The notes under the pieces: model-generated
The model's database searches: none
What the model saw: only the letters and a program-made list of their open reading frames with translations
What the model was told of the DNA's origin: nothing
Position numbers and translations under genes: made by a program
Source: Omnitrophica WOR_2 bacterium GWF2_43_52
GTDB lineage: Bacteria; Omnitrophota; Gorgyraeia; Gygaellales; UBA12090
Direction of reading: 5' to 3'
Length of the DNA stretch: 64,000 nucleotides
Assembly: GCA_001805445.1 (NCBI GenBank)
Contig: MHGF01000036.1
Span: 7,526 to 71,525, forward strand
Shown here: positions 7,476 through 29,012 of the stretch, piece after piece
Numbering within the stretch: the first letter of the stretch is position 1
How the letters are laid out: each line of letters begins with the position of its first letter

Positions 7476-7568
7476 CACGAATAGGCACAAATTACACACA
7501 AATACACACGAATTAATTCGTCGCTGTATTCGTGATGATTAGTGTGTAATTCGTGGGAATTCGTGTTT
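7476..7568. promoter_or_regulatory. Cluster of CACGAAT/ATTCGTG motifs upstream of the thyA-like gene, including a perfect 14-bp palindrome ACGAATTAATTCGT at 7509-7522
   Basis: Six copies of the 7-mer in both orientations within about 95 bp directly upstream of the CDS. Operator-like. Confidence 0.4.
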
Positions 7569-7614
7569 AAAAGACGCTTTTTCAGTGATAACTATTGTAA
7601 GAAGGGGGGATGCT

Positions 7615-9887: not shown

Positions 9888-10110
9888 TTAGAATAGCGTA
9901 GGTACAGGAAAGATGATGAGGGGGCGTGCCCCGTACAAAACCTGTAATTTACAGAGCAAAGTTTTGTTCGGGGCGTGCCCCGAACAAATTTTCTGTATAG
10001 GATGTTGATATAAATTAAATTTTATAAAATAGATACCTGGGTATAGTAATTGACTATGGGGGGGCGTGCCCCGTACAAAATTGCTATACTTAGATATAAC
10101 AATTTTGTAC
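9868..10110. repeat. Array of GGGGCGTGCCCCG palindromes, each followed by (T/A)ACAAAA(CCTGTAATT), between the GIY-YIG gene and tRNA-Pro
   Basis: Units at about 9921, 9969 and 10059. The 9-mer CGGGGCGTG is identical to the tRNA-Pro 5' end at 10110. TTTGTTCGGGGCGTGCCCCGAACAAA is itself a long palindrome. Spacing is irregular. Confidence 0.75.
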
Positions 10111-10184
10111 GGGGCGTGGCTCAGTTTGGCTAGAGCGCTTGAATGGGGTTCAAGAGGTCGACGGTTCAAGTCCGTCCGCCCCGA
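10110..10184 (+). tRNA. tRNA-Pro (anticodon GGG)
   Basis: Acceptor CGGGGCG/CGCCCCG, D-stem GCTC/GAGC, anticodon stem CTTGA/TCAAG with loop ATGGGGT (anticodon GGG), T-arm ACGG-TTCAAGT-CCGT, discriminator A. Confidence 0.75.
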
Positions 10185-10249
10185 CTACACTCTTTTAACG
10201 TTTACCCTATTACACCGTTAAATTAATTATTATTGGTTAACGGTGTAAT

Positions 10250-10375
10250 AAAGGGGGTGTGGGGGAGACCGTCACCCACGATTGGGGAGTGCTCAGCGAT
10301 CCGCCGTAGGCGGAGAGCGCCGAAGGGGGGCTTGCTCCCCTAGCGGAAGTGCGGAGGCAAATTCCGCTTACCCAT
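10250..10375. repeat. Copy 1 of a ~100-nt GC-rich conserved element (AAGGGGTGTGGGGGAGACCGTC.CCCACG.TTGGGG.GTGCTCAGCGATCCGCCGTAGGCGGAGAGCGCCGAAGGGGGGCTTGC.CCCCTAGCGGAAGTGCG)
   Basis: Near-identical second copy at 15402-15530. Contains nested hairpins (CCGCC-GTAG-GCGG; GGGGGG-CTTGC-CCCC). GC-rich island in AT-rich DNA, upstream of the GroES-like gene. Preceded by the inverted repeat TTACACCGTTAA...TTAACGGTGTAA. Confidence 0.75.
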
Positions 10376-10398: not shown

Positions 10399-10767
10399 AT
10401 GGCAGATAAAATTGATAAAAAATTGATCGTCGTAGGTGATCGGGTGCTGATTATCCCTGATGACGGCCAGAATCGCACCGATACAGGGTTATATCTACCG
10501 CAAGGAGTAAAAGAGAAGGAAAAGGTACAGAGTGGGACTATTGTCAAGATTGGCCCTGGGTATCCTGTGGTTGACCCTTCGGCGCTCGAGGTAGAGCCAT
10601 GGCAGGCGCCAAAGGTAGAGAATAGGTATTTCCCGCTTTTGGCAAAGGAAGGCGATTATTGTATTTTCTTAAGAAACGCCGGAGTAGAGATAGAATATGA
10701 GGGGAAAAAATATATCGTGGCTCCCCATTCCGCAATCCTTGTGCTTTTAAGAAATACGTTAGAATAG
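10399..10767 (+). CDS. GroES/Cpn10-like small protein
   Basis: 122 aa; N-terminal KKLIVVGDRVLIIPDD and overall beta-rich pattern resemble co-chaperonin GroES; longer than canonical. Confidence 0.45.
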   Translation: MADKIDKKLIVVGDRVLIIPDDGQNRTDTGLYLPQGVKEKEKVQSGTIVKIGPGYPVVDPSALEVEPWQAPKVENRYFPLLAKEGDYCIFLRNAGVEIEYEGKKYIVAPHSAILVLLRNTLE

Positions 10768-10908: not shown

Positions 10909-11268
10909 ATGACAGTCTATACAGGGCCTGAGCGGAGGAAAAAACCTCGGATCGCGGGTAAATTTGTGGTTTCTTACCGTGTAAAAGTTGAGGTCAATAA
11001 CTATGATATTTCTCAGACACGTAATTTAAGCCTCGGGGGAATGTTACTTACCACCAATAGATTTTTTTCTCGAGGGACGGTTCTTGCCATTGATATCCGC
11101 CTGCCGTTTTTTATCGACGCGATAAAGCTTACGGGAATGGTAATAGAATCAAAGGAAGTGGTGAAAGACCTGATTTATGATACCCGTATCCAGTTCCTGG
11201 AAATAGACCCAAGGGCTGAAAGCATTGTGAATGATACGGTAGGATATTATTTAAGAACACAAAAATAA
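10909..11268 (+). CDS. PilZ-domain protein (c-di-GMP-binding type)
   Basis: PERRKKPR (RxxxR) and DIS.GG motifs characteristic of PilZ; 119 aa. Confidence 0.7.
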   Translation: MTVYTGPERRKKPRIAGKFVVSYRVKVEVNNYDISQTRNLSLGGMLLTTNRFFSRGTVLAIDIRLPFFIDAIKLTGMVIESKEVVKDLIYDTRIQFLEIDPRAESIVNDTVGYYLRTQK

Positions 11269-11280
11269 ATAAGGATACCT

Positions 11281-12576
11281 ATGATGGACAAAATTAATAT
11301 CGGGGTGATCGGCTTTGGTACCGTCGGAAGCGGAGTTATCCGCGCCTTACTGGCAAAACCACACTTTTTTGAGAAGAAAACAGGCGCACGGCTGGTAGTA
11401 AAAACTATTTGCGACAAAGATATCCGAACCAAGCGTGAGGTGAGTGTCGAAAAGAGTATCCTGACGACTGATGTCAACAGTATTCTACATGACGCTGACG
11501 TGTCTATTGTTGTTGAGCTTATCGGGGGGATACATCCGGCGAAAGAATTTATTTTAGAAGCATTGAGGCGCGGAAAGCATGTGGTTACCGCCAATAAAGC
11601 GCTCTTGGCAGAATGCGGGGAAGAAATTTTTCAGGCGGCGAAAAAAGCAAATGTGGATTTATATTTTGAGGCATCGGTGGGCGGAGGTATCCCAATTATT
11701 AAGGCGCTCAGGGAATCATTAGGAGGGAATCATATTGATACCCTCTTGGGGATTGTGAATGGAACATCGAATTATATCTTGACGTCTATGGATGAAGAGG
11801 GTTTGAGTTTTAATCAGGCGCTCATAGAAGCAAAAAAGAAAGGCTACGCGGAGAAGAATCCTGCCTTGGATATTAAGGGCATTGATTCGGCGCACAAACT
11901 GGCCATCTTGTCTTTACTGAGCTTTGGTAAAAGCATTGCCAGCAACGCGATCTATGTCGAAGGCATAGAAGATATTTCTTTGAGCGATATTCGTTATGCC
12001 CAGGATTTTGGCTATGTGATAAAACTTTTGGCAATCGCGAAAAATATCAACGGCCAGTTAGAGGCACGGGTTCATCCCACGCTTTTATCCAAGGAACATC
12101 TGCTTTCTAATGTCAAGGGTGTCTATAACGCGATTTATGTGCACGGGGATTTGGCGGGAGGCACATTGTTTTATGGCCGCGGCGCAGGCAGTAAGCCCGC
12201 GGCAAGTTCAGTCTTAGGTGATATTATAGATGTGGCGCGAAACATAAAACATAATTCCGTAAACCGGGTGCCTATCTATGTAGAAGATAAGACGATTAAG
12301 AAAGTCCGGGATATAGATGATATAGAAACCAGGTATTATCTGAGGCTCTCGGTTATCGATAAGCCCGGCGGGTTAGGAAAAATTGCCGCGATTTTAGGCC
12401 GGCACGGCATTTCTATTGCCTCAGTAGCGCAAAAAGAAAGAAAACAAGCAAAGATTGTCCCTGTTGTTATGATGACTCATGACGCAAAGGAAAGAAATAT
12501 GCGTTTGGCGTTAGAGGAAATCAGCAGGCTTGGCGGGATTAAGAAAAAAACTATAGCTATACGGGTTGAACGGTAA
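11281..12576 (+). CDS. hom: Homoserine dehydrogenase
   Basis: N-terminal NAD-binding INIGVIGFGTVGSGV, catalytic domain, C-terminal ACT domain; 431 aa. Confidence 0.9.
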   Translation: MMDKINIGVIGFGTVGSGVIRALLAKPHFFEKKTGARLVVKTICDKDIRTKREVSVEKSILTTDVNSILHDADVSIVVELIGGIHPAKEFILEALRRGKHVVTANKALLAECGEEIFQAAKKANVDLYFEASVGGGIPIIKALRESLGGNHIDTLLGIVNGTSNYILTSMDEEGLSFNQALIEAKKKGYAEKNPALDIKGIDSAHKLAILSLLSFGKSIASNAIYVEGIEDISLSDIRYAQDFGYVIKLLAIAKNINGQLEARVHPTLLSKEHLLSNVKGVYNAIYVHGDLAGGTLFYGRGAGSKPAASSVLGDIIDVARNIKHNSVNRVPIYVEDKTIKKVRDIDDIETRYYLRLSVIDKPGGLGKIAAILGRHGISIASVAQKERKQAKIVPVVMMTHDAKERNMRLALEEISRLGGIKKKTIAIRVER

Positions 12577-13652
12577 TGGGCTATCGAGGCTTAATCGAGA
12601 CATTTAGGAGATTCCTGCCTGTTACTGAAAAAACGCCCGTGGTTAGCCTCTTGGAAGGCAATACGCCCTTAATGCCTTCAGGCTATCTAAACAGCATTGT
12701 GGGAACTGGCTTTGAGGTGTATTTTAAGTTTGAAGGGTTAAATCCTACCGGCTCATTTAAGGACCGAGGGATGACCCTGGCGGTTTCCAAAGCCAAAGAA
12801 GCAGGCGCGAAGATTATTATGTGCGCCTCAACAGGAAATACCTCTGCTTCAGCTGCTGCCTATGCCGCTAAAGCCGGGCTTGGCTGTGTGGTGTTGATTC
12901 CTGAGGGAGCTATTGCCTTGGGTAAGCTTGCCCAGGCGCTTATTCATGGAGCGAAGGTTTTGGCGCTCCAAGGAAATTTTGACGAAGCCTTAAGCATTGT
13001 TAAAGAAATTACTGCCCGGTATCCCATTGTCTTGGTCAATTCTTTAAATCCTCATCGTTTAGAAGGGCAAAAGACCGCTGCCTTTGAGATTTGTGATACG
13101 TTAGAAGGCGCGCCTGATTACCAATGTATTCCTGTCGGTAACGCGGGAAATATCACTGCCTACTGGAAAGGTTACCAGGAATACAAAAAACAAGGCTTGG
13201 TTTCGTCACTGCCGAAATTATTAGGATTCCAGGCCGCGGGAGCCGCTCCTATCGTTAATGGCCGTCCCATAAAAAAGCCAAAAACCATTGCTACGGCAAT
13301 CAGAATCGGTAATCCTGCAAGCTGGAAGCAGGCAGAGGCTGCCCGCGATGAATCCGGAGGGTTGATTGATTCTGTAACGGACAAAGAGATTGTTGATGCG
13401 TATAAACTTTTAGCATCAAAAGAGGGTATTTTTGTTGAGCCCGCGTCAGCCGCGTCAGTTGCCGGTTTACTGAAGTTGGCAAGAAAAGGATATTTTCACC
13501 GCACATCACAAATCACAAATCGCAAATTGAAAATTGTTTGTATTTTGACCGGCCACGGCCTGAAAGACCCTGACCGGGCAATTAAAATAGTCCATAAGCC
13601 AAAGATTATAAAGGCAGATTTAAAGGCTGTGTTACGGGAGATTGGGTATTAG
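12576..13652 (+). CDS. thrC: Threonine synthase
   Basis: PLP-lysine motif FEGLNPTGSFKDRGM; 358 aa. Carries a short tandem-repeat-derived insertion near the C-terminus (13505-13528). Confidence 0.9.
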   Translation: MGYRGLIETFRRFLPVTEKTPVVSLLEGNTPLMPSGYLNSIVGTGFEVYFKFEGLNPTGSFKDRGMTLAVSKAKEAGAKIIMCASTGNTSASAAAYAAKAGLGCVVLIPEGAIALGKLAQALIHGAKVLALQGNFDEALSIVKEITARYPIVLVNSLNPHRLEGQKTAAFEICDTLEGAPDYQCIPVGNAGNITAYWKGYQEYKKQGLVSSLPKLLGFQAAGAAPIVNGRPIKKPKTIATAIRIGNPASWKQAEAARDESGGLIDSVTDKEIVDAYKLLASKEGIFVEPASAASVAGLLKLARKGYFHRTSQITNRKLKIVCILTGHGLKDPDRAIKIVHKPKIIKADLKAVLREIGY

Positions 13653-13726
13653 CAGCTGTCAGCTTTCGGCTGTCAGCTATCAGCTTTGAGCTGAAAGCCG
13701 GATGCTGATAGCTGAAGGCTGAAAAA

Positions 13727-15090: not shown

Positions 15091-15573
15091 TTACTAGTGC
15101 GCTGTGACATTAGATTTTGACATTGCGCTATCATGTTTGAATATAGGGCGGAGGTCCTGTCAAGGTTATGTTTTCGCGGGGACGTTCGGCCTGCTCCTGC
15201 GGCAGACCTCACTCGGCGTAAATTTTCGCGCCCGCCACTAAAAGCGAGAGCGGGTCCAAGCCGCGAAAATTTCCGTACGCCCCGCTCAAACACAACCTTG
15301 CCACCCCCGCTGGCAAGTGAAGTGTTGCAGATAGCATGAATTTATGTCACGGAGCACTAGTACACTGTGAAATTAATTTTCAATAATTGACAGTGTAGTA
15401 AAAGGGGTGTGGGGGAGACCGTCCCCCACGCTTGGGGGGGTGCTCAGCGATCCGCCGTAGGCGGAGAGCGCCGAAGGGGGCTTGCCCCCCTAGCGCCTGC
15501 CTGCCTGCCGGCAGGGAAGTGCGCCCTCAAACCACCGTATATTATCAATAATTAAGTTCACAGCGCACTAGTT
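15091..15573. repeat. About 480-bp noncoding segment bounded by 13-bp inverted repeats (CTAGTGCGCTGTG / CACAGCGCACTAG, with a degenerate internal copy at 15346-15361) holding a GC-rich block and copy 2 of the GC-rich element
   Basis: Read directly. Internal inverted repeat GGCGTAAATTTTCGCGC / GCGAAAATTTCCGTACGCC. Strong GC skew relative to flanks. The 68-aa ORF at 15133-15339 is low-complexity (P/R/A-rich) and judged noncoding. Confidence 0.6.
15402..15530. repeat. Copy 2 of the GC-rich conserved element, carrying a nested insertion of the 22-bp CCTGCCTGCCGGCAGG palindrome between CTAGCG and GGAAGTGCG
   Basis: Copy 1 reads CTAGCGGAAGTGCG. Copy 2 reads CTAGCG-CCTGCCTGCCTGCCGGCAG-GGAAGTGCG. 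Confidence 0.75.
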
Positions 15574-16473: not shown

Positions 16474-16536
16474 ATAGAGCTCAAAGCGTTCTCTAGTACA
16501 CCGTTATATTAATTATTGCCTGCCTGCCACGGGCAG

Positions 16537-16705
16537 GGATATCAGGGTATCAGGGAATTGGGATTTGGGGATCGGGCAATCGAAGGATTAGGGAAAAACC
16601 GATATTTTGTTCCCAATATCCTGATATCCTAATCACCAAATCCTAATCTCCCGATCACCTAATCTCCGCATTTAACATGGTTAATTACATATATTATACG
16701 AGGAG
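16537..16705. repeat. Copy B of the ATCAGG-hexamer palindromic element plus conserved tail CCGCATTTAACATGGTTAATTACATATATTATACG (promoter-like) upstream of lemA
   Basis: GGATATCAGGGTATCAGGGAATTGGGATTTGGGG...CCCAATATCCTGATATCCTAATCACCAAATCCTAATCTCCCGATCACCTAATCTCC. Immediately preceded by the GCCTGCCTGCCACGGGCAGGG palindrome (16518-16538). Confidence 0.8.
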
Positions 16706-18640: not shown

Positions 18641-18775
18641 GGATATCAGGGTATCGGGAAATTAGGAAAAAAACTATTCTTTATTCCTACTATCCCGATA
18701 TCCTGATTACCAAATCCTAATCTTCCCGGCCACCTGATTTCCGTATTTAACATGGTTATTTACCTATAGTATGTG
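18641..18775. repeat. Copy C of the ATCAGG-hexamer palindromic element with conserved tail CCGTATTTAACATGGTTATTTACCTATAGTATG upstream of lysC
   Basis: GGATATCAGGGTATCGGGAAATTAGG...CCTACTATCCCGATATCCTGATTACCAAATCCTAATCTTCCCGGCCACCTGATTTCC. Confidence 0.8.
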
Positions 18776-22057: not shown

Positions 22058-22095
22058 AGAAAAGTATCCTTTTTATAGAAAAGGAGTGCGTGAGC

Positions 22096-23640
22096 ATGGA
22101 AACCAAGTGCGATAAGGAAATTGATGTTTTGGTCAGGGCCAGGTATCCTCTGATTTATTTGGTAAGCTGGGAGGAAACTAGGATTATAGAGCGCTTAAGG
22201 GATATGGCGGAGCGCAGGCAAAAAAAGCTTTTTCTTTGGTCTATTACGCGGGGGATTTTTAAATTAGAGGATGTATCCTCAAAGGTTGACGAGGCGACCA
22301 GGGATCCTATAAACGCCCTTAGCTATATTGAGAAATACCCTGACCCCGCGCTTTTTGTGTTTCTTGACTTTCATTCCTTTTTAAATGACCAAACGATAAT
22401 CCGCAAGGCAAGGGACTTGGTAAGTAATCTGAAAGATACGTATGAAACTTTGATTATTATCTCTCCGGTCTTGACGGTGCCTGTAGAATTAGAGAAGGAA
22501 TTCGTGGTTGTGGATTATGATATGCCCTATTATGAGGAAATGACTGAATTGCTCGATGAGATAATTCAGGTGGTATCTAAAACGCCGGAAGTAACCATAG
22601 ACCTTACTCCCGATACTAAGGAAAGGTTAGCCAAGGCAGCGCTTGGCCTGACGCGTTCTGAAGCGGAGAATGCCTTTGCCCGGGCGATTGTGATTGATAA
22701 GAAGTTAGATGTTAATGATATTGATAAAATCCTCGATGAGAAAAAACAGGCGATTAGAAAGAGTAAGCTGTTAGAATATTATGAACTAAGGGAAGAATTT
22801 TCCAATGTCGGAGGCGTCGATTGTTTAAAAGATTGGCTTTCTAAACGCGGCATTGCCTTTACCCAAAAAGCCCAGGAGTTCGGCCTGCCTCAACCAAAAG
22901 GGATTATGCTCCTAGGCGTGCAGGGATGCGGCAAGAGCTTAACCGCTAAAGCTGTTTCGGGTTTGTGGAAATTGCCTCTTTTACGCCTGGATATTGGCGC
23001 GGTCTTTAGCGGTATCGTCGGCTCATCAGAAGAGAATATGCGCCGGGCAATAAAGCTGGCGGAAGCTTTGGCGCCGATAGTGTTATGGATTGATGAGATA
23101 GAAAAAGGCTTGTCAGGAGTGCAGAGTTCAACATTCTCTGACGCAGGGACCTCCGCGCGCGTCTTTAGCACATTCCTTACCTGGCTCCAGGAAAAGACTG
23201 CTGCTGTGTTTGTCATTGCTACTGCCAACAATATCCAGCAGCTTCCTCCGGAGTTGCTGCGAAAAGGGCGATTTGATGAAATATTCTTTGTGGATTTACC
23301 GACTCAGGATGAAAGAAAAGAGATATTTGGAATACATATAAAAAAGAGAAAACGAGATGCGGCGCGCTTTGACGTAGAGCTTTTGGCCAAGGAAAGCGAG
23401 GGTTTTTCAGGCGCGGAAATAGAACAAGCGGTGATTGCCGCTATGTATGATGCCTTTTTGGAAAAGAAGGATATTGACTCTGAAGGCATTATTCGCAGCA
23501 TAAAACAAAGCGTGCCTTTATCGGTAACGATGAAAGAGAATATTGAAGACCTCCGCGCGTGGGCCAAGTATAGGGCGCGCCCGGCAAGCAGCTCTCGAAA
23601 AGAAGTGTCCTCTAACAAGGAGAGAAAGTTAGAGTTTTAA
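22096..23640 (+). CDS. Ycf46-like AAA+ ATPase
   Basis: N-terminal LVRARYPLIYLVSWEETRIIERL resembles the cyanobacterial/plastid Ycf46 N-domain. Walker A GVQGCGKS, Walker B VLWIDEIEK, arginine finger region. ATG 22096 preferred (SD AAGGAG 9 nt upstream); the GTG at 22090 is too close to the SD. Confidence 0.7.
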   Translation: METKCDKEIDVLVRARYPLIYLVSWEETRIIERLRDMAERRQKKLFLWSITRGIFKLEDVSSKVDEATRDPINALSYIEKYPDPALFVFLDFHSFLNDQTIIRKARDLVSNLKDTYETLIIISPVLTVPVELEKEFVVVDYDMPYYEEMTELLDEIIQVVSKTPEVTIDLTPDTKERLAKAALGLTRSEAENAFARAIVIDKKLDVNDIDKILDEKKQAIRKSKLLEYYELREEFSNVGGVDCLKDWLSKRGIAFTQKAQEFGLPQPKGIMLLGVQGCGKSLTAKAVSGLWKLPLLRLDIGAVFSGIVGSSEENMRRAIKLAEALAPIVLWIDEIEKGLSGVQSSTFSDAGTSARVFSTFLTWLQEKTAAVFVIATANNIQQLPPELLRKGRFDEIFFVDLPTQDERKEIFGIHIKKRKRDAARFDVELLAKESEGFSGAEIEQAVIAAMYDAFLEKKDIDSEGIIRSIKQSVPLSVTMKENIEDLRAWAKYRARPASSSRKEVSSNKERKLEF

Positions 23641-23656
23641 TAGTGAATAAAATGAT

Positions 23657-24376
23657 ATGCTGAGAAAATTCATCAAGCGTTTTGAGAAATTAGAGCACGC
23701 GCCAAAAGATGGTCTGTGCAAAGGATGTATTAAGATTTCAAAACGTTTTGAGCGGCTTGAAATAGGAAACAGGAGAATAGAAGTTGTCATTACAGACACA
23801 ATAGGGCAAACTGAAGTTTATCAGGCGCCAGCCAACGCGAACGTTGATTACTCCGTTGTGTGTCCTTATTGCGGCAAGGAAAACCTCTCCAGCGCTATCC
23901 TCTGTATCTCCTGCCAGAATTCGCTGCAGACGCCTTTAACCGAAAACTATCAGAAAGCTGCCCGGTCAATTAAAAAATGCACCTGTGGGGCAATAAATCA
24001 AGGGGAGAGAAGGAATTGCTGGGTCTGTGGCAGGGATTTTTCCTTGGCAGGGGATAAGAATGTGGCAATTGATTCAGCCAATGAAATAATTCTTAATATT
24101 GATGGCGTAGAGTATAAATCCTCAGATAGAAATTTGCCTTTTGACATAGTGACGCTTATGGAAAGGATACGAAAATACGGCTATAGCAAAGAGTTGATTG
24201 ACGATTGGGTAAAGCGTAAAAAGGCGGAAAATGACTTGAAGCAACAGTCATTGCGCGAACGTATTGAGGAAATAAGATCGCAGCTCTCCGCGCGTCAGGT
24301 TCAGCTCATCATCGGTATTGTGGTTGTGGCACTTTACTATTTTTTTAGGTTTTTTATATTTAATCAATTGAGATAA
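23657..24376 (+). CDS. Multi-zinc-ribbon protein with C-terminal transmembrane helix
   Basis: Cys pairs CKGC, CPYCG...CISCQ, CTCG...CWVCG. C-terminal hydrophobic stretch LIIGIVVVALYYFFRFFIF. Confidence 0.5.
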   Translation: MLRKFIKRFEKLEHAPKDGLCKGCIKISKRFERLEIGNRRIEVVITDTIGQTEVYQAPANANVDYSVVCPYCGKENLSSAILCISCQNSLQTPLTENYQKAARSIKKCTCGAINQGERRNCWVCGRDFSLAGDKNVAIDSANEIILNIDGVEYKSSDRNLPFDIVTLMERIRKYGYSKELIDDWVKRKKAENDLKQQSLRERIEEIRSQLSARQVQLIIGIVVVALYYFFRFFIFNQLR

Positions 24377-24398
24377 TACGTAAAAAGGGAGGACTTGC

Positions 24399-24788
24399 AT
24401 GTCTTCAGAGGCTTGTTTGATTACTATGATTGGCGATTTAATTGCTTTAAAGAGAACCTTGTCCGATTTGCAGGTAGAATATGAAGAGACAAAGACTTTG
24501 ACTACTGCCGATGGATCCTCTCATAAAGTTGAAGTGGTAATTAAGGATCCTAACGGCCGTTTAATCGGCCTTGAGAAAACTAAAAAGGGAGAGTATCAGT
24601 TTGTGGCGGATACAAAAGGCTTAACCAAAGAGCAGTTGAAAAAACAGCAAGTGTTTATCAATAAAATTAAGCAGAAATACGCCTATAGTAAGGTTATTGC
24701 TGAGCTTAAAAAACAAGGCTATATGATTTCCGAGGAAGAGAGGGTTCAGAAAAATACCATTCGGCTGGTAGCGCGAAAATGGTCATAG
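24399..24788 (+). CDS. DUF1257 (Ycf35-like) protein
   Basis: 129 aa; C-terminal KIKQKYAYSKVIAELKKQGYMISEEERVQKNTIRLVARKW matches the remembered Ycf35 pattern (QRYAY...QGF...EE...IRLV.QRW). Confidence 0.55.
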   Translation: MSSEACLITMIGDLIALKRTLSDLQVEYEETKTLTTADGSSHKVEVVIKDPNGRLIGLEKTKKGEYQFVADTKGLTKEQLKKQQVFINKIKQKYAYSKVIAELKKQGYMISEEERVQKNTIRLVARKWS

Positions 24789-24940
24789 CAGCAGAGCTGA
24801 ACATGTTATAGAGGAAGATGATAATTGTTGCGTGTATCGTTAACCTTGCCTACCGGCAGGCAGGCGTGTACCGCTTGCCGTAACGGTAAACGGTTAGCGG
24901 TAAACGGTACACGAAACATAATTTTTAACATAGGAGAGAT

Positions 24941-25147
24941 ATGGCGGGAAAACAAGAGATTGAATTATTTATATCTGATGATGGTGAGCTTAAGGTGCAT
25001 ATTAAGGGCATGAAAGGGCCGGGGTGCCTGAAAGTATTAGAAACTTTGGCAAAGGAAATCGGCAGTGAAAAAGGAAGAACGCTTACCAGTGAGTACTACG
25101 AATCAACGAAAAATACGAATACGACGTCAACGAAGTTAAAAAAGTAG
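24941..25147 (+). CDS. DUF2997-like small protein (usual partner of DUF1257)
   Basis: 68 aa; IELFISDDGELKVHIKGMKGPGCLKVLETLAKEIG...TSEYYE fits the DUF2997 pattern (I..DG.V....G..G..C......L...LG...TSEY). Confidence 0.5.
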   Translation: MAGKQEIELFISDDGELKVHIKGMKGPGCLKVLETLAKEIGSEKGRTLTSEYYESTKNTNTTSTKLKK

Positions 25148-25157
25148 GAAGATTTTT

Positions 25158-28004
25158 ATGGAAGAATTAAACAGCCGTTACAATTCAAAAGAGGTGGAAG
25201 ACAGGATGTATGCCTTTTGGCAAAGTGAAAACCTGTTTGCCGCCAAAGTTAATCCTGATAAGAAGCCTTTTTGTATCGTTATCCCGCCGCCTAATGTAAC
25301 AGGAATATTACATATGGGCCACGCGCTCAATAACACCTATCAAGACATTTTAATCCGTCTTAGGCGTATGCAAGGCTTTGAGTCTTTGTGGATGCCCGGG
25401 ACCGATCACGCCGGTATTGCCACCCAGAATGTGGTAGAACGCCAACTTGCCAAGGAGGGCTTGAAGCGCCAGGATTTAGGCAGGGACAAGTTTTTGGAGA
25501 GAGTCTGGCAGTGGAAGGAGCAATACGGCTCAACGATTATACGGCAGTTAAAGAAATTGGGCGCGTCAAGTGACTGGCAGCGGGTGCGTTTTACTATGGA
25601 TGAGGAATACTCTCAGTCGGTAAAAGAGGTATTTGTTGCCTTGTGGAATAAAGGCCTGATTTATCAGGATGATAAGATCATCAACTGGTGCCCTCGCTGC
25701 CAAACGGCCTTATCGGATGAGGAAGCTGCTCATCGCGAAGTTCAGGGGAATTTGTATTATATACGGTATTCTCTTAAAGAAGAAATTCGAAATTCGAAAT
25801 TCGAAATTCGAGATAAATCTCAAATCGAAAATCACACATCGCAAAATTATATCGTGGTAGCAACCACACGGCCGGAGACGATGGTAGGGGATACGGCGGT
25901 TGCTCTGAATCCAAAAGATGAGCGCTATAAGCACTTAATTGGTAAAACGGTTATTGTGCCTCTAATAGAACGGGAAATTAAAATAATTGCCGATGAATTG
26001 ATTGATATGGAATTTGGAACCGGTTTGGTGAAGGTTACCCCGGCCCATGACTCCAATGATTATGAGATGGGCAAGCGCCATACACTAGAGTTTATCAACA
26101 TTATGCATCCTAACGCGGTTTTAAATACGAATGCCGGTGACTATAACGGCTTGGATAGGTTTGAGGCGCGAGAGGCAATTATTGAAGATTTAAAAGAAAG
26201 AAAACTCATTGAAAAGATTGAGCCGCATACCCATGCCGTGGGGCATTGTTATCGCTGCTCAACCGTGATAGAACCGTATTTGTCAAGGCAGTGGTTTGTG
26301 AAAATGGAGCCGTTGGCAAAACCGGCGATTGAAGCGGTAAAAGACGGGAGAATCAATTTTTATCCTAAACGCTGGGCCAAGGTTTATCTTAACTGGATGG
26401 AGAATATCAGGGATTGGTGTATCTCTCGCCAAATCTGGTGGGGGCATAGACTGCCGGTTTATTATTGCAAAGAATGCTTGAAAACCGGCAGTCAGTGTAA
26501 AGTTGAAAGTGTAAAGTGTAAAGAAAAAGGAATTATTGTGGCTAAAGTTAAGCCCCAGAAGTGTCCGGATTGCGGTGGAGGGGATATCTATCAGGATGAA
26601 GATGTTTTGGATACCTGGTTTTCTTCCTGGCTGTGGCCGTTTGCTACTTTTTATTGGCCGTTTAATACGAAGGATGAAGCCTGCCTGCCGGCAAGGCAGG
26701 GACGAAGGATGAAGGACGAAAAAGATTTAAACTATTTTTATCCTACGTCTGTCTTAGTGACCGCTCCTGAAATTATTTTTTTCTGGGTGGCGCGTATGAT
26801 TATGGCTGGTTTTGAATTCATGGGAAAAGAACCGTTTAAGGATGTCTATATCCACGGCACCGTGCGGGATGTAGAAGGTAAAAAGATGTCTAAGTCCTTA
26901 GGCAATATCATTGACCCTTTGGAAATTATTGAGAAATACGGCACTGATGCGCTTCGCTTCAGCCTTATTTCTATAACCGCAAGCGGGCAGGATGTCTTTT
27001 TATCCGAGCAGAAGTTCGAGGTGGGCAGGAATTTTGCCAATAAACTCTGGAATGCCTCGCGGTTTTCACTTATGAATTTGGATTTGAGTTTAGTAAATGT
27101 GGATTTATGCGTTTTATTTGAGAAGGAAGACCTTGAACTCCCTGAGCGATGGATCTTGAGCCGGTTTTATTCAATGCTTAGTGCCTTAAATAAGGCGTTA
27201 GATAACTACCGTTTTAATGACGCGGCTAATATCCTCTATGAATTTGTATGGCATGAGTTTTGTGATTGGTATATAGAGCTGGCAAAGCCTAATTTGGTGA
27301 GCGGGTTAGCGGGTGAGCGGGTGAGCGGGGAAAGCAAGAATACACAGATAGTATTGTATAAGGTTTTAGAAAAAACCTTAAGGTGTTTGCATCCGTTTAT
27401 GCCCTTTATTACCGAAGAAATCTGGCAGAAACTTTCTTTAACGTCCCTCGTCCCTCGTCCCCCGTCCTTCGTAAGTATTATGACCCAACCGTGGCCGCAT
27501 GTGCAAAAAAAGATAATCGATAAGAAGGCCGAAAGCCAAATGCAGCTGGCTATTGAGGTTATTACCGCGATCAGAAATTTAAAAGCTGAGGTAAAGATTG
27601 CTCCGGCGCAGGCGGTTAAAGTAATGCTCATAGCTAAGGATAAAGAAGTAAAAAGCGCCTTGGATACAGTAGCGAGCTATATCACGAATTTGGGAAGGGT
27701 AGAGGCTTTAACAATTCAAGGAGCGCCCGCAAAGCTGAAAAAAGGTATAAGTGCTATAGTACATGAGGTGCAGGTATTTTTAGAGCTTGAAGGATTGCTT
27801 GATATTGATCAGGAAATAGAACGGCTTACTAAGGAAGCCGATGCGCTTGCGGGATCTTTAAAGTCAAAGGAATCCCGGCTAAAAAATAAGGATTTCCTCA
27901 AAAAAGCACCCGAAGAAATTGTGGAAAAAGAGAAAGAGTCGCTGGCACAAGGCCAGGAAAAATTGGCAAGCCTGCAGAGGGTTATTAGTGAGCTTAAGAA
28001 ATAA
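25158..28004 (+). CDS. valS: Valine--tRNA ligase
   Basis: HIGH (PPNVTGILHMGHALN), KMSKS, editing domain, C-terminal coiled-coil; 948 aa. Carries five short repeat-derived in-frame insertions (25783-25810, 26494-26523, 26667-26714, 27298-27331, 27443-27472). Confidence 0.95.
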   Translation: MEELNSRYNSKEVEDRMYAFWQSENLFAAKVNPDKKPFCIVIPPPNVTGILHMGHALNNTYQDILIRLRRMQGFESLWMPGTDHAGIATQNVVERQLAKEGLKRQDLGRDKFLERVWQWKEQYGSTIIRQLKKLGASSDWQRVRFTMDEEYSQSVKEVFVALWNKGLIYQDDKIINWCPRCQTALSDEEAAHREVQGNLYYIRYSLKEEIRNSKFEIRDKSQIENHTSQNYIVVATTRPETMVGDTAVALNPKDERYKHLIGKTVIVPLIEREIKIIADELIDMEFGTGLVKVTPAHDSNDYEMGKRHTLEFINIMHPNAVLNTNAGDYNGLDRFEAREAIIEDLKERKLIEKIEPHTHAVGHCYRCSTVIEPYLSRQWFVKMEPLAKPAIEAVKDGRINFYPKRWAKVYLNWMENIRDWCISRQIWWGHRLPVYYCKECLKTGSQCKVESVKCKEKGIIVAKVKPQKCPDCGGGDIYQDEDVLDTWFSSWLWPFATFYWPFNTKDEACLPARQGRRMKDEKDLNYFYPTSVLVTAPEIIFFWVARMIMAGFEFMGKEPFKDVYIHGTVRDVEGKKMSKSLGNIIDPLEIIEKYGTDALRFSLISITASGQDVFLSEQKFEVGRNFANKLWNASRFSLMNLDLSLVNVDLCVLFEKEDLELPERWILSRFYSMLSALNKALDNYRFNDAANILYEFVWHEFCDWYIELAKPNLVSGLAGERVSGESKNTQIVLYKVLEKTLRCLHPFMPFITEEIWQKLSLTSLVPRPPSFVSIMTQPWPHVQKKIIDKKAESQMQLAIEVITAIRNLKAEVKIAPAQAVKVMLIAKDKEVKSALDTVASYITNLGRVEALTIQGAPAKLKKGISAIVHEVQVFLELEGLLDIDQEIERLTKEADALAGSLKSKESRLKNKDFLKKAPEEIVEKEKESLAQGQEKLASLQRVISELKK
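25783..25810 (+). repeat. Intragenic tandem repeat (GAAATTC)x4 within valS
   Basis: Read directly. Lies in a surface-loop region that is about 13 aa longer than E. coli ValRS. Confidence 0.8.
26667..26714 (+). repeat. 22-bp palindrome CCTGCCTGCCGGCAAGGCAGGG flanked by perfect 13-bp direct repeats ACGAAGGATGAAG, inserted in-frame inside valS
   Basis: Read directly. The same palindrome family occurs at 15496-15516, 16518-16538 and (reverse orientation) 24844-24866. Confidence 0.8.
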
Positions 28005-28112: not shown

Positions 28113-29012
28113 ATGAAGAAACAAATGTTGCATCGTGTCATCAAAGATGCGCTAACGGAGGATATCGGAGGCGGCGATATCACCAGCCGCATTCTGATAC
28201 CTAAGGGTAAGAAAATAAAGGCTGTGCTGTTTTTAAAAGAAAGAGGCGTGGTGGCGGGGCTGGCTGTCGCGCGGAACGTTTTTAAAATAGTAAACACGTC
28301 GGTTACTTTTAAAGCGCACTACGCTGAAGGCTCATGGCAAAACGCGGGGAAAATTCTTGCAACGGTAGAAGGTGATGCCCACGCTATACTGAAAGCGGAG
28401 CGGACGGCGTTAAATCTTTTAAGCCATCTTTGCGCAATAGCTACAGCTGCCAGGAAGTTTGTGGATAGAGTTAAGCCGTATAAAGTTAAGATTTTGGACA
28501 CTCGTAAGACTATTCCCGGGCTGCGTGACTTGCAAAAATACGCGGTGAGTCTTGGCGGCGGCTGTAATCACCGCATGGGCCTCTGGGATGGTATCTTGAT
28601 TAAGGATAATCATATTGCTATAGGGTGTAGGGGGCAGGGTTTAGGGTACATTGAAGAATTAATTGGGATGGCGAAAAAGAGAAGGCCAAAGGGCCTGAAA
28701 ATTGAAATAGAGGTAAAGAATTTACAGGAGTTTAGGCAAGCACTAAAGGCAGAGCCAGATATAATAATGTTGGATAATATGAAAATAGCTGATATTAGAA
28801 AGGCAGTTGAAATAAGACGCACGACACAAGGCGTCCGTCAAAGCAGTGTGGCGGGCGCACAACGCATGACGCAGATAGAAGCCTCCGGAGGCGTCCACCT
28901 AGATAATGTTAGGGCAATTGCCAAAACAGGCGTTGATAGTATTTCTATCGGTAGTCTCACCCATTCAGTGAAAGCCATTGATATTTCCTTAGAAGTAGCC
29001 CCTTCCCCTTGA
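28113..29012 (+). CDS. nadC: Nicotinate-nucleotide pyrophosphorylase (quinolinate phosphoribosyltransferase)
   Basis: ALTEDIGGGDITS N-terminus, ERTALNLLSHL, TRKT.PGLR, IMLDNM...IEASGG...TGVD.IS.GSLTHS. Contains a GC-rich ~14-aa insertion (28815-28872). Confidence 0.9.
   Translation: MKKQMLHRVIKDALTEDIGGGDITSRILIPKGKKIKAVLFLKERGVVAGLAVARNVFKIVNTSVTFKAHYAEGSWQNAGKILATVEGDAHAILKAERTALNLLSHLCAIATAARKFVDRVKPYKVKILDTRKTIPGLRDLQKYAVSLGGGCNHRMGLWDGILIKDNHIAIGCRGQGLGYIEELIGMAKKRRPKGLKIEIEVKNLQEFRQALKAEPDIIMLDNMKIADIRKAVEIRRTTQGVRQSSVAGAQRMTQIEASGGVHLDNVRAIAKTGVDSISIGSLTHSVKAIDISLEVAPSP

Follow-up and report, generated by a model that had tools for sequence, protein, structure and literature searches.

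The 64,000-nucleotide stretch of contig MHGF01000036.1 from Omnitrophica WOR_2 bacterium GWF2_43_52, referred to here in its entirety as the window (coordinates count from its first letter), carries a valine-tRNA ligase gene, valS, that contains several short tandem repeats, most of them with a unit of seven nucleotides. To our knowledge, valS is essential in all known bacteria, small selfish or mutational repeats are usually thought to be excluded from essential bacterial genes, and 7-nt units are those least expected in coding DNA. The locus thus raises the question of what these repeats are, how they arrived in such a gene and why they persist there. The answer favored here, held with somewhat more confidence than doubt, is that they are copies or remnants of lineage-specific, very small dispersed repeats that survive in permissive loops of the protein.

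The host gene was identified on several grounds. Its product belongs to the valine-tRNA ligases according to the NCBIfam valS equivalog NF004349 (1225.7 bits against a cut-off of 704), matches Thermus thermophilus valyl-tRNA synthetase (ValRS; structure 1GAX) with an E value of 1.9e-220, and keeps both the HMGH (HIGH-type) and the KMSKS motifs. An AlphaFold model for which 111 Omnitrophota ValRS served as input reached a mean predicted local distance difference test score (pLDDT) of 83 and a predicted template-modeling score of 0.79, and its top match in the PDB was again 1GAX (template-modeling score 0.74/0.80); a model from 24 sequences, with a mean pLDDT of 57, was discarded. All five sites that carry inserts have a pLDDT below 50 or a local dip: residues 212-227 (site 1, at a beta-hairpin tip flanked by strands 197-206 and 231-236) and 445-454 (site 2, the zinc-knuckle loop) fall below 50, while sites 3, 4 and 5 dip to 62, 72 and 67 between regular helices. 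Site 4 lies where two long helices of the anticodon-binding bundle meet in a turn, and site 5 in coil after helix 749-761. In the predicted fold, the insert sites are therefore coil between regular secondary-structure elements. Together, the inserts add about 70 residues, mostly hydrophilic, so that the repeat-derived share of the protein is about 7%; EEIRNSKFEIR and VSGLAGERVSGESK are predicted peptides that span inserts.

A sequence-only reading of this locus had listed four repeats in valS. All four were found within 1 nt of where it placed them, by Tandem Repeats Finder (TRF) and by direct reading, and each occupies a gap in the comparison with 1GAX and with 60 ValRS of other phyla, as expected if repeats coincide with segments that are longer than usual. 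Two further arrays, at 25815-25847 and 26667-26724, had gone unlisted, and the repeat given as (GTGAGCGGG)x3 with period 9 at 27298-27331 is in fact the period-8 array of site 4.

At site 1, which is also a gap with respect to insert-free orthologues, TRF reports (GAAATTC)x4.3 at 25782-25811, with 100% matches, directly followed by a degenerate period-7 array, (AAATCNC)x4.4, at 25815-25847. A two-arm hairpin was considered for this site and rejected; a single long direct array, degenerate in part, describes the insert better. The site 2 array, (AGTGTAA)x4.3 at 26494-26523, is followed by AAAAAG. A related locus, L089 (compared loci are cited by such labels), has the same arm at this site together with a complementary (ATTACAC)x4 arm, and the window is shorter by exactly 36 nt; judged by this alignment, the window insert is the left arm, that is, half, of a two-arm element that is complete in L089. 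The second unit reads GTTGAAA instead of GTGTAAA, which removes an in-frame TAA. The start of the same insert forms a perfect inverted repeat (12/12 complementary) with conserved RLPVYYC codons 21 nt upstream of it; the resulting stem folds as RNA at −24.4 kcal/mol (z −5.35; none of 200 shuffles folds as well), and L089 keeps it (about 11250-11300) with one compensatory change from G-C to A-U. At site 3, deletion of the 21-nt palindrome that splits the array restores a regular array with a 14-nt period, and the unit that would put TGA in frame has C instead. The site 4 array contains four GGG tracts, a motif of the G-quadruplex type, and recurs with equal length and near-identical sequence in L086, L083 and L081; its nucleotide identity is 92.9% against 71.5% for the gene core, and that of its third codon positions 85.7% against 48.5%. 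The site 5 array includes a variant unit, CGTCCTT, that is the reverse complement of the site 3 unit GGACGAA.

The density of heptamers sets this DNA apart. When arrays of at least 2.8 copies were counted against an expectation from 40 dinucleotide shuffles of the window, nine period-7 arrays were observed where 0.28 were expected (shuffle maximum 2), an excess of about 30-fold; other periods yielded at most two arrays each and no comparable excess. Although valS makes up 4.4% of the window, it holds five of the nine period-7 arrays and the sole period-8 array. With over-represented tandem units of 7 nt, the set answers to the description of heptameric long simple sequence repeats (SSRs), one of the four arrays listed at the outset being of period 8. 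Across Omnitrophota-type loci, period-7 density amounts to 14 per 100 kb, compared with 2.8 in a first set of loci from other phyla and 4.8 in a larger one, where period 7 is also in excess over periods 6, 8 and 9 (1.5-2.0 per 100 kb). Copy number is narrowly distributed, with a median of 4.4 and a standard deviation of 0.9 over 81 arrays, 62 of which have four to five copies. Most arrays (55 of 81) lie within open frames of at least 150 aa, but coding DNA accounts for about 90% of the sequence, so that per base they are roughly four-fold denser in spacers; genes are nonetheless far from free of them. For 13 of the 55 coding arrays, perfect repetition would place a stop in frame, and the observed sequence departs from the repeat at precisely the unit concerned. 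Since the units at risk are the mutated ones, the arrays are probably translated, as far as this pattern of substitutions tells.

Assembly evidence bears on whether the repeats are real and whether they vary. An independent scaffold of the same population, L082, differs by three single-nucleotide polymorphisms in 22.6 kb and by no change in repeat length; seven members of a 90% protein cluster, drawn from five or more assemblies or metagenome-assembled genomes (MAGs), align without a single gap, and arrays of 28-34 nt fit inside one sequencing read. Copy-number polymorphism, the mark of slippage in heptamer repeats, was absent from L082 and from the seven near-identical cluster members. The repeats are therefore neither artefacts nor length-polymorphic.

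What these loops look like elsewhere was addressed with 111 Omnitrophota ValRS of at least 60% identity and the 60 ValRS of other phyla, and, at the DNA level, with codon alignments of valS from orthologues at 61-73% protein identity and from further Omnitrophota-type loci. Among the matches listed by genome and metagenome scans with the ValRS protein, most were relatives with identities of 62% or lower. Measured from anchor to anchor, sites 1-5 are 28, 23, 25, 18 and 15 aa long in the window, against medians of 9, 7, 8, 14 and 7 aa in other phyla (n = 60); for site 4, the Omnitrophota baseline is 7 aa. The five sites vary in length in other phyla as well and are thus indel-tolerant, and among the 111 Omnitrophota ValRS they are the main indel hot spots, with 13-29 distinct lengths each (site 1 alone ranges from 8 to 75 aa in 26 distinct lengths); three rarer hot spots lie elsewhere in the protein. 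The content of the loops changes as well. At site 1, L081 carries (GTCCACA)4-AAAAGAACAAAAAG-(TATGGAC)4, L083 has (GGCCTCA)4 and (GCATGCG)4 arms, and L085 has (GTCACCA)4 and (ACAGGCG)4 arms; the codon alignments show no insert at sites 1-3 in L084 and no site 1 array in L086. Even the closest relative, P0002, with 81% protein identity, differs in content at all five sites. The arrays are thus real, stable and in frame, they lie in hypervariable loops, orthologous loops hold different arrays, and the arms of an element co-vary.

Outside the Omnitrophota, the valS of L044, a candidate division WOR-3 MAG, has heptamer arrays at sites 2 (11203-11233) and 5 (12033-12070). One unit of its site 2 array, (AAATGCA)x4.4, gives an in-frame TGC, which may replace the second Cys of the zinc-knuckle CxxC, and its site 5 unit resembles the site 5 unit of L083.

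In the codon alignments, a full element consists of two partly complementary arms of about four heptamers each with an A-rich spacer between them. The inserts of the window itself are for the most part degenerate or incomplete. Arm complementarity averages 5.55 of 7 positions within elements and 3.64 of 7 between elements (permutation p < 5e-5), the arms typically carry exactly one mismatch per heptamer, and the folding z scores of two-arm elements lie between −4 and −10. In 5 of 11 unit pairs compared (elements of L081, L085, L086, L087, L089, L094 and L004), the mismatch is a transition, read as A.C on the sense strand and as G.U on the antisense. Of 13 coding inserts for which both strands were folded, 12 are more stable as antisense, because sense A.C mismatches turn into G.U there. 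A functional meaning for this asymmetry was considered and not drawn, as an intergenic copy of the one family checked, by sequence comparison, shares the mismatch and the families are not independent.

In an all-against-all comparison of 69 elements from 31 Omnitrophota-type loci (596 kb), several elements recur far from one another. An element of 69-75 nt occurs at valS site 3 of L086, at valS site 2 of L094 and in an intergenic region of L094, with 86-94% identity among the three copies and unrelated flanks; the (GTCCACA) element occupies sites 1 and 2 of L081 and site 2 of L004. The (CAGCTGT)/(GCTGAAA) hairpin that follows thrC in the window, and is conserved in that intergenic position in L081 and L084, belongs to a family that fills valS site 2 in L167 and L168. 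The 21-nt palindrome has coding copies, in frame, in the C-terminal region of valS in L084 and at the N-terminus of nadC in L083. One element sequence is thus found at several unrelated loci in relatives, and identical elements stand at unrelated sites and in different genomes. The load follows the genome: genomes with arrays in valS carry arrays elsewhere too, and many relatives carry none anywhere.

The site 1 unit also appears at other loci. Arrays of (GAAATTC)/(GAAATAC) at 9851-9990 of L098, 9811-9945 of L066, and 13135-13155 and 18641-18672 of L159 make up the arms of a roughly 150-nt inverted repeat. This repeat is found directly upstream of valS both in an Omnitrophota-type contig and in a MAG of the Syntrophaceae, so that the family is shared between phyla.

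These comparisons allow the suggestions of the sequence-only reading to be weighed. It had offered relaxed constraint on surface loops or an active repeat process as causes, and both find support: the loops are indel-tolerant in other phyla, form the main variable sites among the Omnitrophota and are modeled as low-confidence coil, and the arrays in a given loop differ from genome to genome, with one and the same element at unrelated sites. The comparison of orthologues that it proposed shows relatives whose loops vary in length and carry other heptamer arrays. Its suspected link to a palindrome family is borne out by the copy inside the site 3 array, by the intergenic copies in the window and by the coding copies in relatives. 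Its description of the repeats as slippage-prone finds no support, because a change of one 7-nt unit would shift the frame of an essential gene; near-identical genomes show no length variants, and the period-8 array keeps its exact length in orthologues of about 70% identity.

In-frame arrays extend to other genes of the window. In thrC, arrays of different units occupy the exact window position in L081, L083 and L086, and each adds exactly 21 nt relative to L084. In nadC, L083 has (CTGCGTC)x4.9 at the position of the window's (TAGGGTG) array. In-frame insertion at tolerant positions is thus seen in the unrelated genes valS, thrC and nadC, tolerance being read for the valS loops from the AlphaFold model and from indel variation. 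The window nadC also has a second insert at 28800-28870, about 14 codons relative to L084, whose peptide, TTQGVRQSSVAGAQR, corresponds to no detectable period; at this second site, L083 has (AGACGCA)x4.9, the reverse complement of its other nadC array 200 nt upstream. Local seeding from adjacent conserved codons (TGTAAAG/TGCAAAG at the CxxC, GCCAGGC/GCCCGGC in thrC) was tried as an origin of the units and rejected on comparison with insert-free orthologues (Fisher p ~1). Table 1 lists the coordinates of the features in the window.

Table 1. Position and properties of valS, its insert sites and the other repeats of the window
Feature	Coordinates	Strand	Description
valS, valine-tRNA ligase	25158-28004	+	948 aa; intact open reading frame (ORF); hosts all five insert sites
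Site 1 insert	25779-25850	+	~19-21 codons; beta-hairpin tip, CP1/editing region; peptide EEIRNSKFEIRDKSQIENHTSQN
Site 2 hairpin	26448-26497	+	Conserved coding GACTGCCGGTTT (26449-26460) pairs with insert start AAACCGGCAGTC (26482-26493)
Site 2 insert	26482-26529	+	~15 codons; loop of Cys4 zinc knuckle
Site 3 insert	26667-26724	+	~17 codons; (ACGAAGG/ATGAAGG)x5 array split by the 21-nt palindrome
Palindrome CCTGCCTGCCGGCAAGGCAGG	26680-26700	+	21 nt; in frame; peptide ACLPARQG; sits cleanly inside the site 3 array
Site 4 insert	27296-27329	+	~11 codons; period-8 (GGTGAGCG)x4.2 (TRF)
Site 5 insert	27442-27472	+	~8 codons; (CGTCCCT)x4.4 (TRF)
thrC array (ATCACAA)x3.3	13505-13527	+	In frame; unit family of the second half of site 1
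Intergenic hairpin after thrC stop	13653-13724	+	Arms (CAGCTNT)x5 and (GCTGANA)x5; −42.3 kcal/mol, z −5.7
nadC array (TAGGGTG)x3.9	28621-28647	+	In frame; a perfect array would contain an in-frame TAG
Palindrome copies	15496-15515, 16519-16537, 24844-24864(-), 26680-26700		0 expected by chance
Palindrome and heptamer-array hairpin	24844-24864 and 24865-24913		Intergenic, upstream of DUF2997 and valS; −37.2 kcal/mol, z −3.8

Taken as dispersed repeats, these sequences would be of two kinds: elements of about 30-75 nt built of some four tandem heptamers, whose full form is a two-arm hairpin, and 21-nt palindromes. They would populate intergenic spacers, and copies that reach genes would be kept only where they are in frame, free of stops and in a loop that tolerates extra residues, with selection probably acting as a filter for permissive loops. 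Having five such loops, ValRS would therefore accumulate repeats. The inserts would be translated into residues that project from a ValRS fold that is canonical in all other respects, probably without an enzymatic role. Spread would be by copying, through a putative trans-acting enzyme or through template switching between arrays, and homogenization within arrays and between arms could come from slippage or from template switching of the quasipalindrome type.

Several observations weigh against this interpretation. We know of no classical mobile element with internally periodic arms or with a new unit at nearly every locus. No target-site duplication or shared terminal motif was found at the three copies of the L086/L094 family; the pairing of terminal inverted repeats with a target-site duplication that marks miniature inverted-repeat transposable elements is thus missing, though the arms are inverted repeats. 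Neither a transposase nor a reverse transcriptase nor a Y1-transposase-type RAYT (REP-associated tyrosine transposase, REP denoting repetitive extragenic palindromic sequences) was detected among the 20 window ORFs scanned, and a search of Rfam 15 with the window and four loci matched tRNAs and no family for the elements. Second copies of window elements are limited to the palindrome (four copies), the site 1/thrC unit family and site 2 (in L089); (GAAATTC)4 and the arrays of sites 4 and 5 have no second copy within the 64 kb, and for the inserts of sites 1, 4 and 5 neither strand folds better than its shuffled versions. A concentration that speaks for the interpretation, 24 of 46 coding elements in valS, which represents 14% of the sequence (p = 2e-8), includes some ascertainment bias because the loci were found via valS. 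Finally, different families stand at site 2 at exactly the same position, between the conserved KQANE and KKGIIVS, and the prefix and suffix of this site, like the constant increment in thrC, look more like in-place turnover than independent insertion.

These last features are the starting point of the strongest rival, in which the arrays arise purely in place and nothing moves: slippage or tandem duplication of a local heptamer, with net in-frame changes of 21 nt, would build an array, fold-back (quasipalindrome) template switching would supply and correct the second arm, and concerted change would alter the units lineage by lineage. Perfect arrays such as that at 25782-25811 (100% matches) would be a natural product of such events, as would thrC arrays that add exactly 21 nt in four genomes, each with its own unit, and a variable site 2 array enclosed by a conserved prefix and suffix. 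Two further points also fit: the first 12 nt of the site 2 insert are the reverse complement of a conserved stretch 21 nt upstream, with its compensatory change in L089, and the two arms co-vary. Heptamers are moreover the commonest unit of long SSRs in bacteria, for which polymerase slippage has been proposed (Mrazek 2007, as summarized in PMC4679880). Against a purely local origin stand the elements of about 70 nt that recur nearly unchanged, together with their spacer, at unrelated sites within and between genes and in different genomes, and a negative test for local seeding, in which eight arrays matched at 6/7 or better where 7.2 were expected. Slippage by a single unit would be lethal in frame, which makes homogenization within an essential ORF hard to achieve by slippage alone, and the copy number stays tightly near four, unlike the broad distribution that slippage would be expected to produce. 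As a complete account, this rival appears improbable, perhaps the case in a minority of conceivable outcomes; as a component it has more to offer, since the prefix and suffix of site 2, the 21-nt increment of thrC, the co-varying arms and the 12-nt reverse complement point to a contribution from in-place slippage or template switching.

A bolder version can be framed, which we regard as speculative and rather unlikely: Omnitrophota, and probably further uncultivated phyla, as in the WOR-3 genome L044, may possess a dedicated process that works in a 7-nt register and repeatedly restores, in situ and at fixed sites, both the arrays of some four units and the arms complementary to them. If this were true, a few loops of essential proteins would be hypervariable segments resembling cassettes, with DNA that turns over more quickly than the rest of the gene, and the seeming mobility of the elements would reflect ectopic template switching between arrays and not transposition.

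A further alternative holds that the inserts are kept for a function, either as hairpins or G-quadruplexes in valS mRNA or DNA that affect translation, pausing, mRNA stability or replication, or as lineage-specific appendages of the ValRS protein. The conservation of third codon positions in the four-GGG-tract array of site 4 (85.7% against 48.5%) is what such a role would predict, and the strong site 2 stem with its one compensatory change, the maintenance of arm complementarity while sequences change, and the conservation of the hairpin downstream of thrC in three genomes also speak for it, as does the four-unit preference reported for heptamers that form G-quadruplexes (PMC4692102). Some arrays, notably the G-tract array of site 4, and the site 2 stem may have a function. 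Other findings speak against the idea: P0002, at 81% identity, differs at all five sites, L084 does without inserts at sites 1-3, site 4 is the one place where an insert peptide is conserved, G-rich units are in the minority, shuffled sequences fold as well as sites 1, 4 and 5 of the window, and the same repeats occur in unrelated genes and spacers. Because content turns over even in the closest relative, a functional role for the whole insert set is unlikely, and we place this explanation well down the order. A phase-variable contingency locus, or an artefact of sequencing or assembly, is suggested by a unit length not divisible by three, a trait of classical contingency repeats, and by data drawn from metagenome assemblies, but it is barely credible given an essential gene with an intact ORF that lacks the defining behavior of contingency loci, arrays of 28-34 nt that are shorter than a sequencing read, lengths that do not differ in L082 or among the seven cluster members (five assemblies or more), and an architecture shared by orthologues from many unrelated projects.

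The remainder of the window offers additional observations. Upstream of valS, a block comprising an AAA ATPase gene, an unknown gene, DUF1257 and DUF2997 (22090-25147) lies between a leuA-like gene and valS; it is also present in P0002 and L081 and is absent at that position in L083, L084 and L086. Two intergenic segments of about 140 nt, at 10207-10345 and 15357-15495, are 87% identical and contain several small GC-rich hairpins (ccgccgtaggcgg, gggggcttgcccc); the former adjoins a tRNA gene (10110-10184) and the latter is followed by a copy of the palindrome. A compound intergenic element at 16519-16665 begins with a palindrome copy, CCTGCCTGCCACGGGCAGG, and continues with a large hairpin whose arms consist of 7-8-nt repeats (GGGATNN... 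/ ...NNATCCC); 33 nt of this element, around 16617-16649, recur with 91% identity at 18691-18723. An intergenic inverted repeat with units of about 10 nt (CACAAATTACA / TGTAATTCGTG) spans 7486-7570, upstream of an ORF that resembles thymidylate synthase. The GroES-like ORF at 10399-10767 (122 aa) is repeat-free and is longer and more divergent than usual, with residues 9-56 alone matching the first half of Pfam Cpn10. Of 51 window ORFs of at least 90 aa, 50 are on the plus strand, and a cluster of glycosyltransferase and radical-SAM/B12-binding genes at 38-62 kb contains no period-7 array.

If the inserts are indeed dispersed repeats, their significance lies in several directions. Five loops refilled with different repeats across a clade amount to a natural map of insertion-tolerant sites in ValRS and provide a case of de novo peptide segments derived from non-coding repeats. 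The regularity of the architecture, with four units per arm, one mismatch per unit and co-varying arms, offers a handle on how repeats are generated and spread in a phylum without a cultured model. In practical terms, such inserts inflate protein length, confuse marker-gene alignments and phylogenies of metagenome-assembled genomes, and may pass for assembly errors.

Among known systems, the closest parallel is provided by the Rickettsia palindromic elements (RPEs), in-frame inserts in many genes according to the account of Ogata et al. (2000) given in PMC10969869 and PMC3184786. Like RPEs, the elements described here are small, hairpin-capable dispersed repeats of non-coding origin, which occur in frame in housekeeping genes at positions compatible with the fold as well as between genes, and they are lineage-specific and fall into several families. 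RPEs, in contrast, measure about 100-150 bp and conserve both a family sequence and a peptide, whereas the present elements measure 21-75 nt and have arms of about four tandem heptamers, their unit differs at most loci, and the same loop holds different families in different genomes.

The heptamer SSRs of other bacteria form a second point of reference. The short tandemly repeated repetitive (STRR) sequences of Calothrix and Nostoc are heptameric. Heptamers are the commonest long SSR unit in bacteria (Mrazek 2007, in the summary of PMC4679880). A further example is that of the TAACTGA repeats of Beggiatoaceae (PMC4679880), and the G-rich heptamers of Xanthomonas and Nostoc, reported as mainly intergenic, show a preference for about four units that has been ascribed to G-quadruplex formation (PMC4692102). 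The arrays of the window and its relatives share with these repeats the over-represented 7-nt tandem units, the many copies, the number of units near four and the patchy distribution across phyla. The known heptamer SSRs are reported to be depleted in coding sequence; here 55 of 81 arrays lie in open frames, though spacers hold more of them per base. The present arrays further differ in that few of their units are rich in G, they can pair to form hairpins, and one essential gene contains several of them.

REP sequences are extragenic by definition and dependent on a RAYT gene, and their arms are not tandem heptamers. With REPs and the hairpins formed from two inverted REPs (REPINs), the present elements have in common short palindromes (compare the 21-nt CCTGCCTGCC..GGCAGG family), hairpins of two inverted halves, many copies and the lack of target-site duplications; they stand outside this class with copies inside genes, no RAYT hit among the 20 window ORFs and arms made of heptamers. 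Cyanobacterial small dispersed repeats (SDRs) are the subject of Elhai et al. (2008), cited in PMC5861425. SDRs are reportedly mobile-looking elements of 21-27 nt that nest in other repeats; the 21-nt palindrome nested cleanly in the site 3 array is SDR-like and differs in phylum and in sequence. Quasipalindrome template-switch mutagenesis, associated with the work of Ripley and of Lovett, is a source of point mutations and short patches and not of whole heptamer-array elements; it would nevertheless explain the co-variation of arms and the start of site 2 as a reverse-complement copy of upstream sequence. In the literature searched, no description of such inserts in Omnitrophota was found, and relative to that literature three features are new: hairpins with arms of about four heptamers, the presence of several of them in one essential gene, and loops that are filled again and again, across a phylum, by elements of different families.

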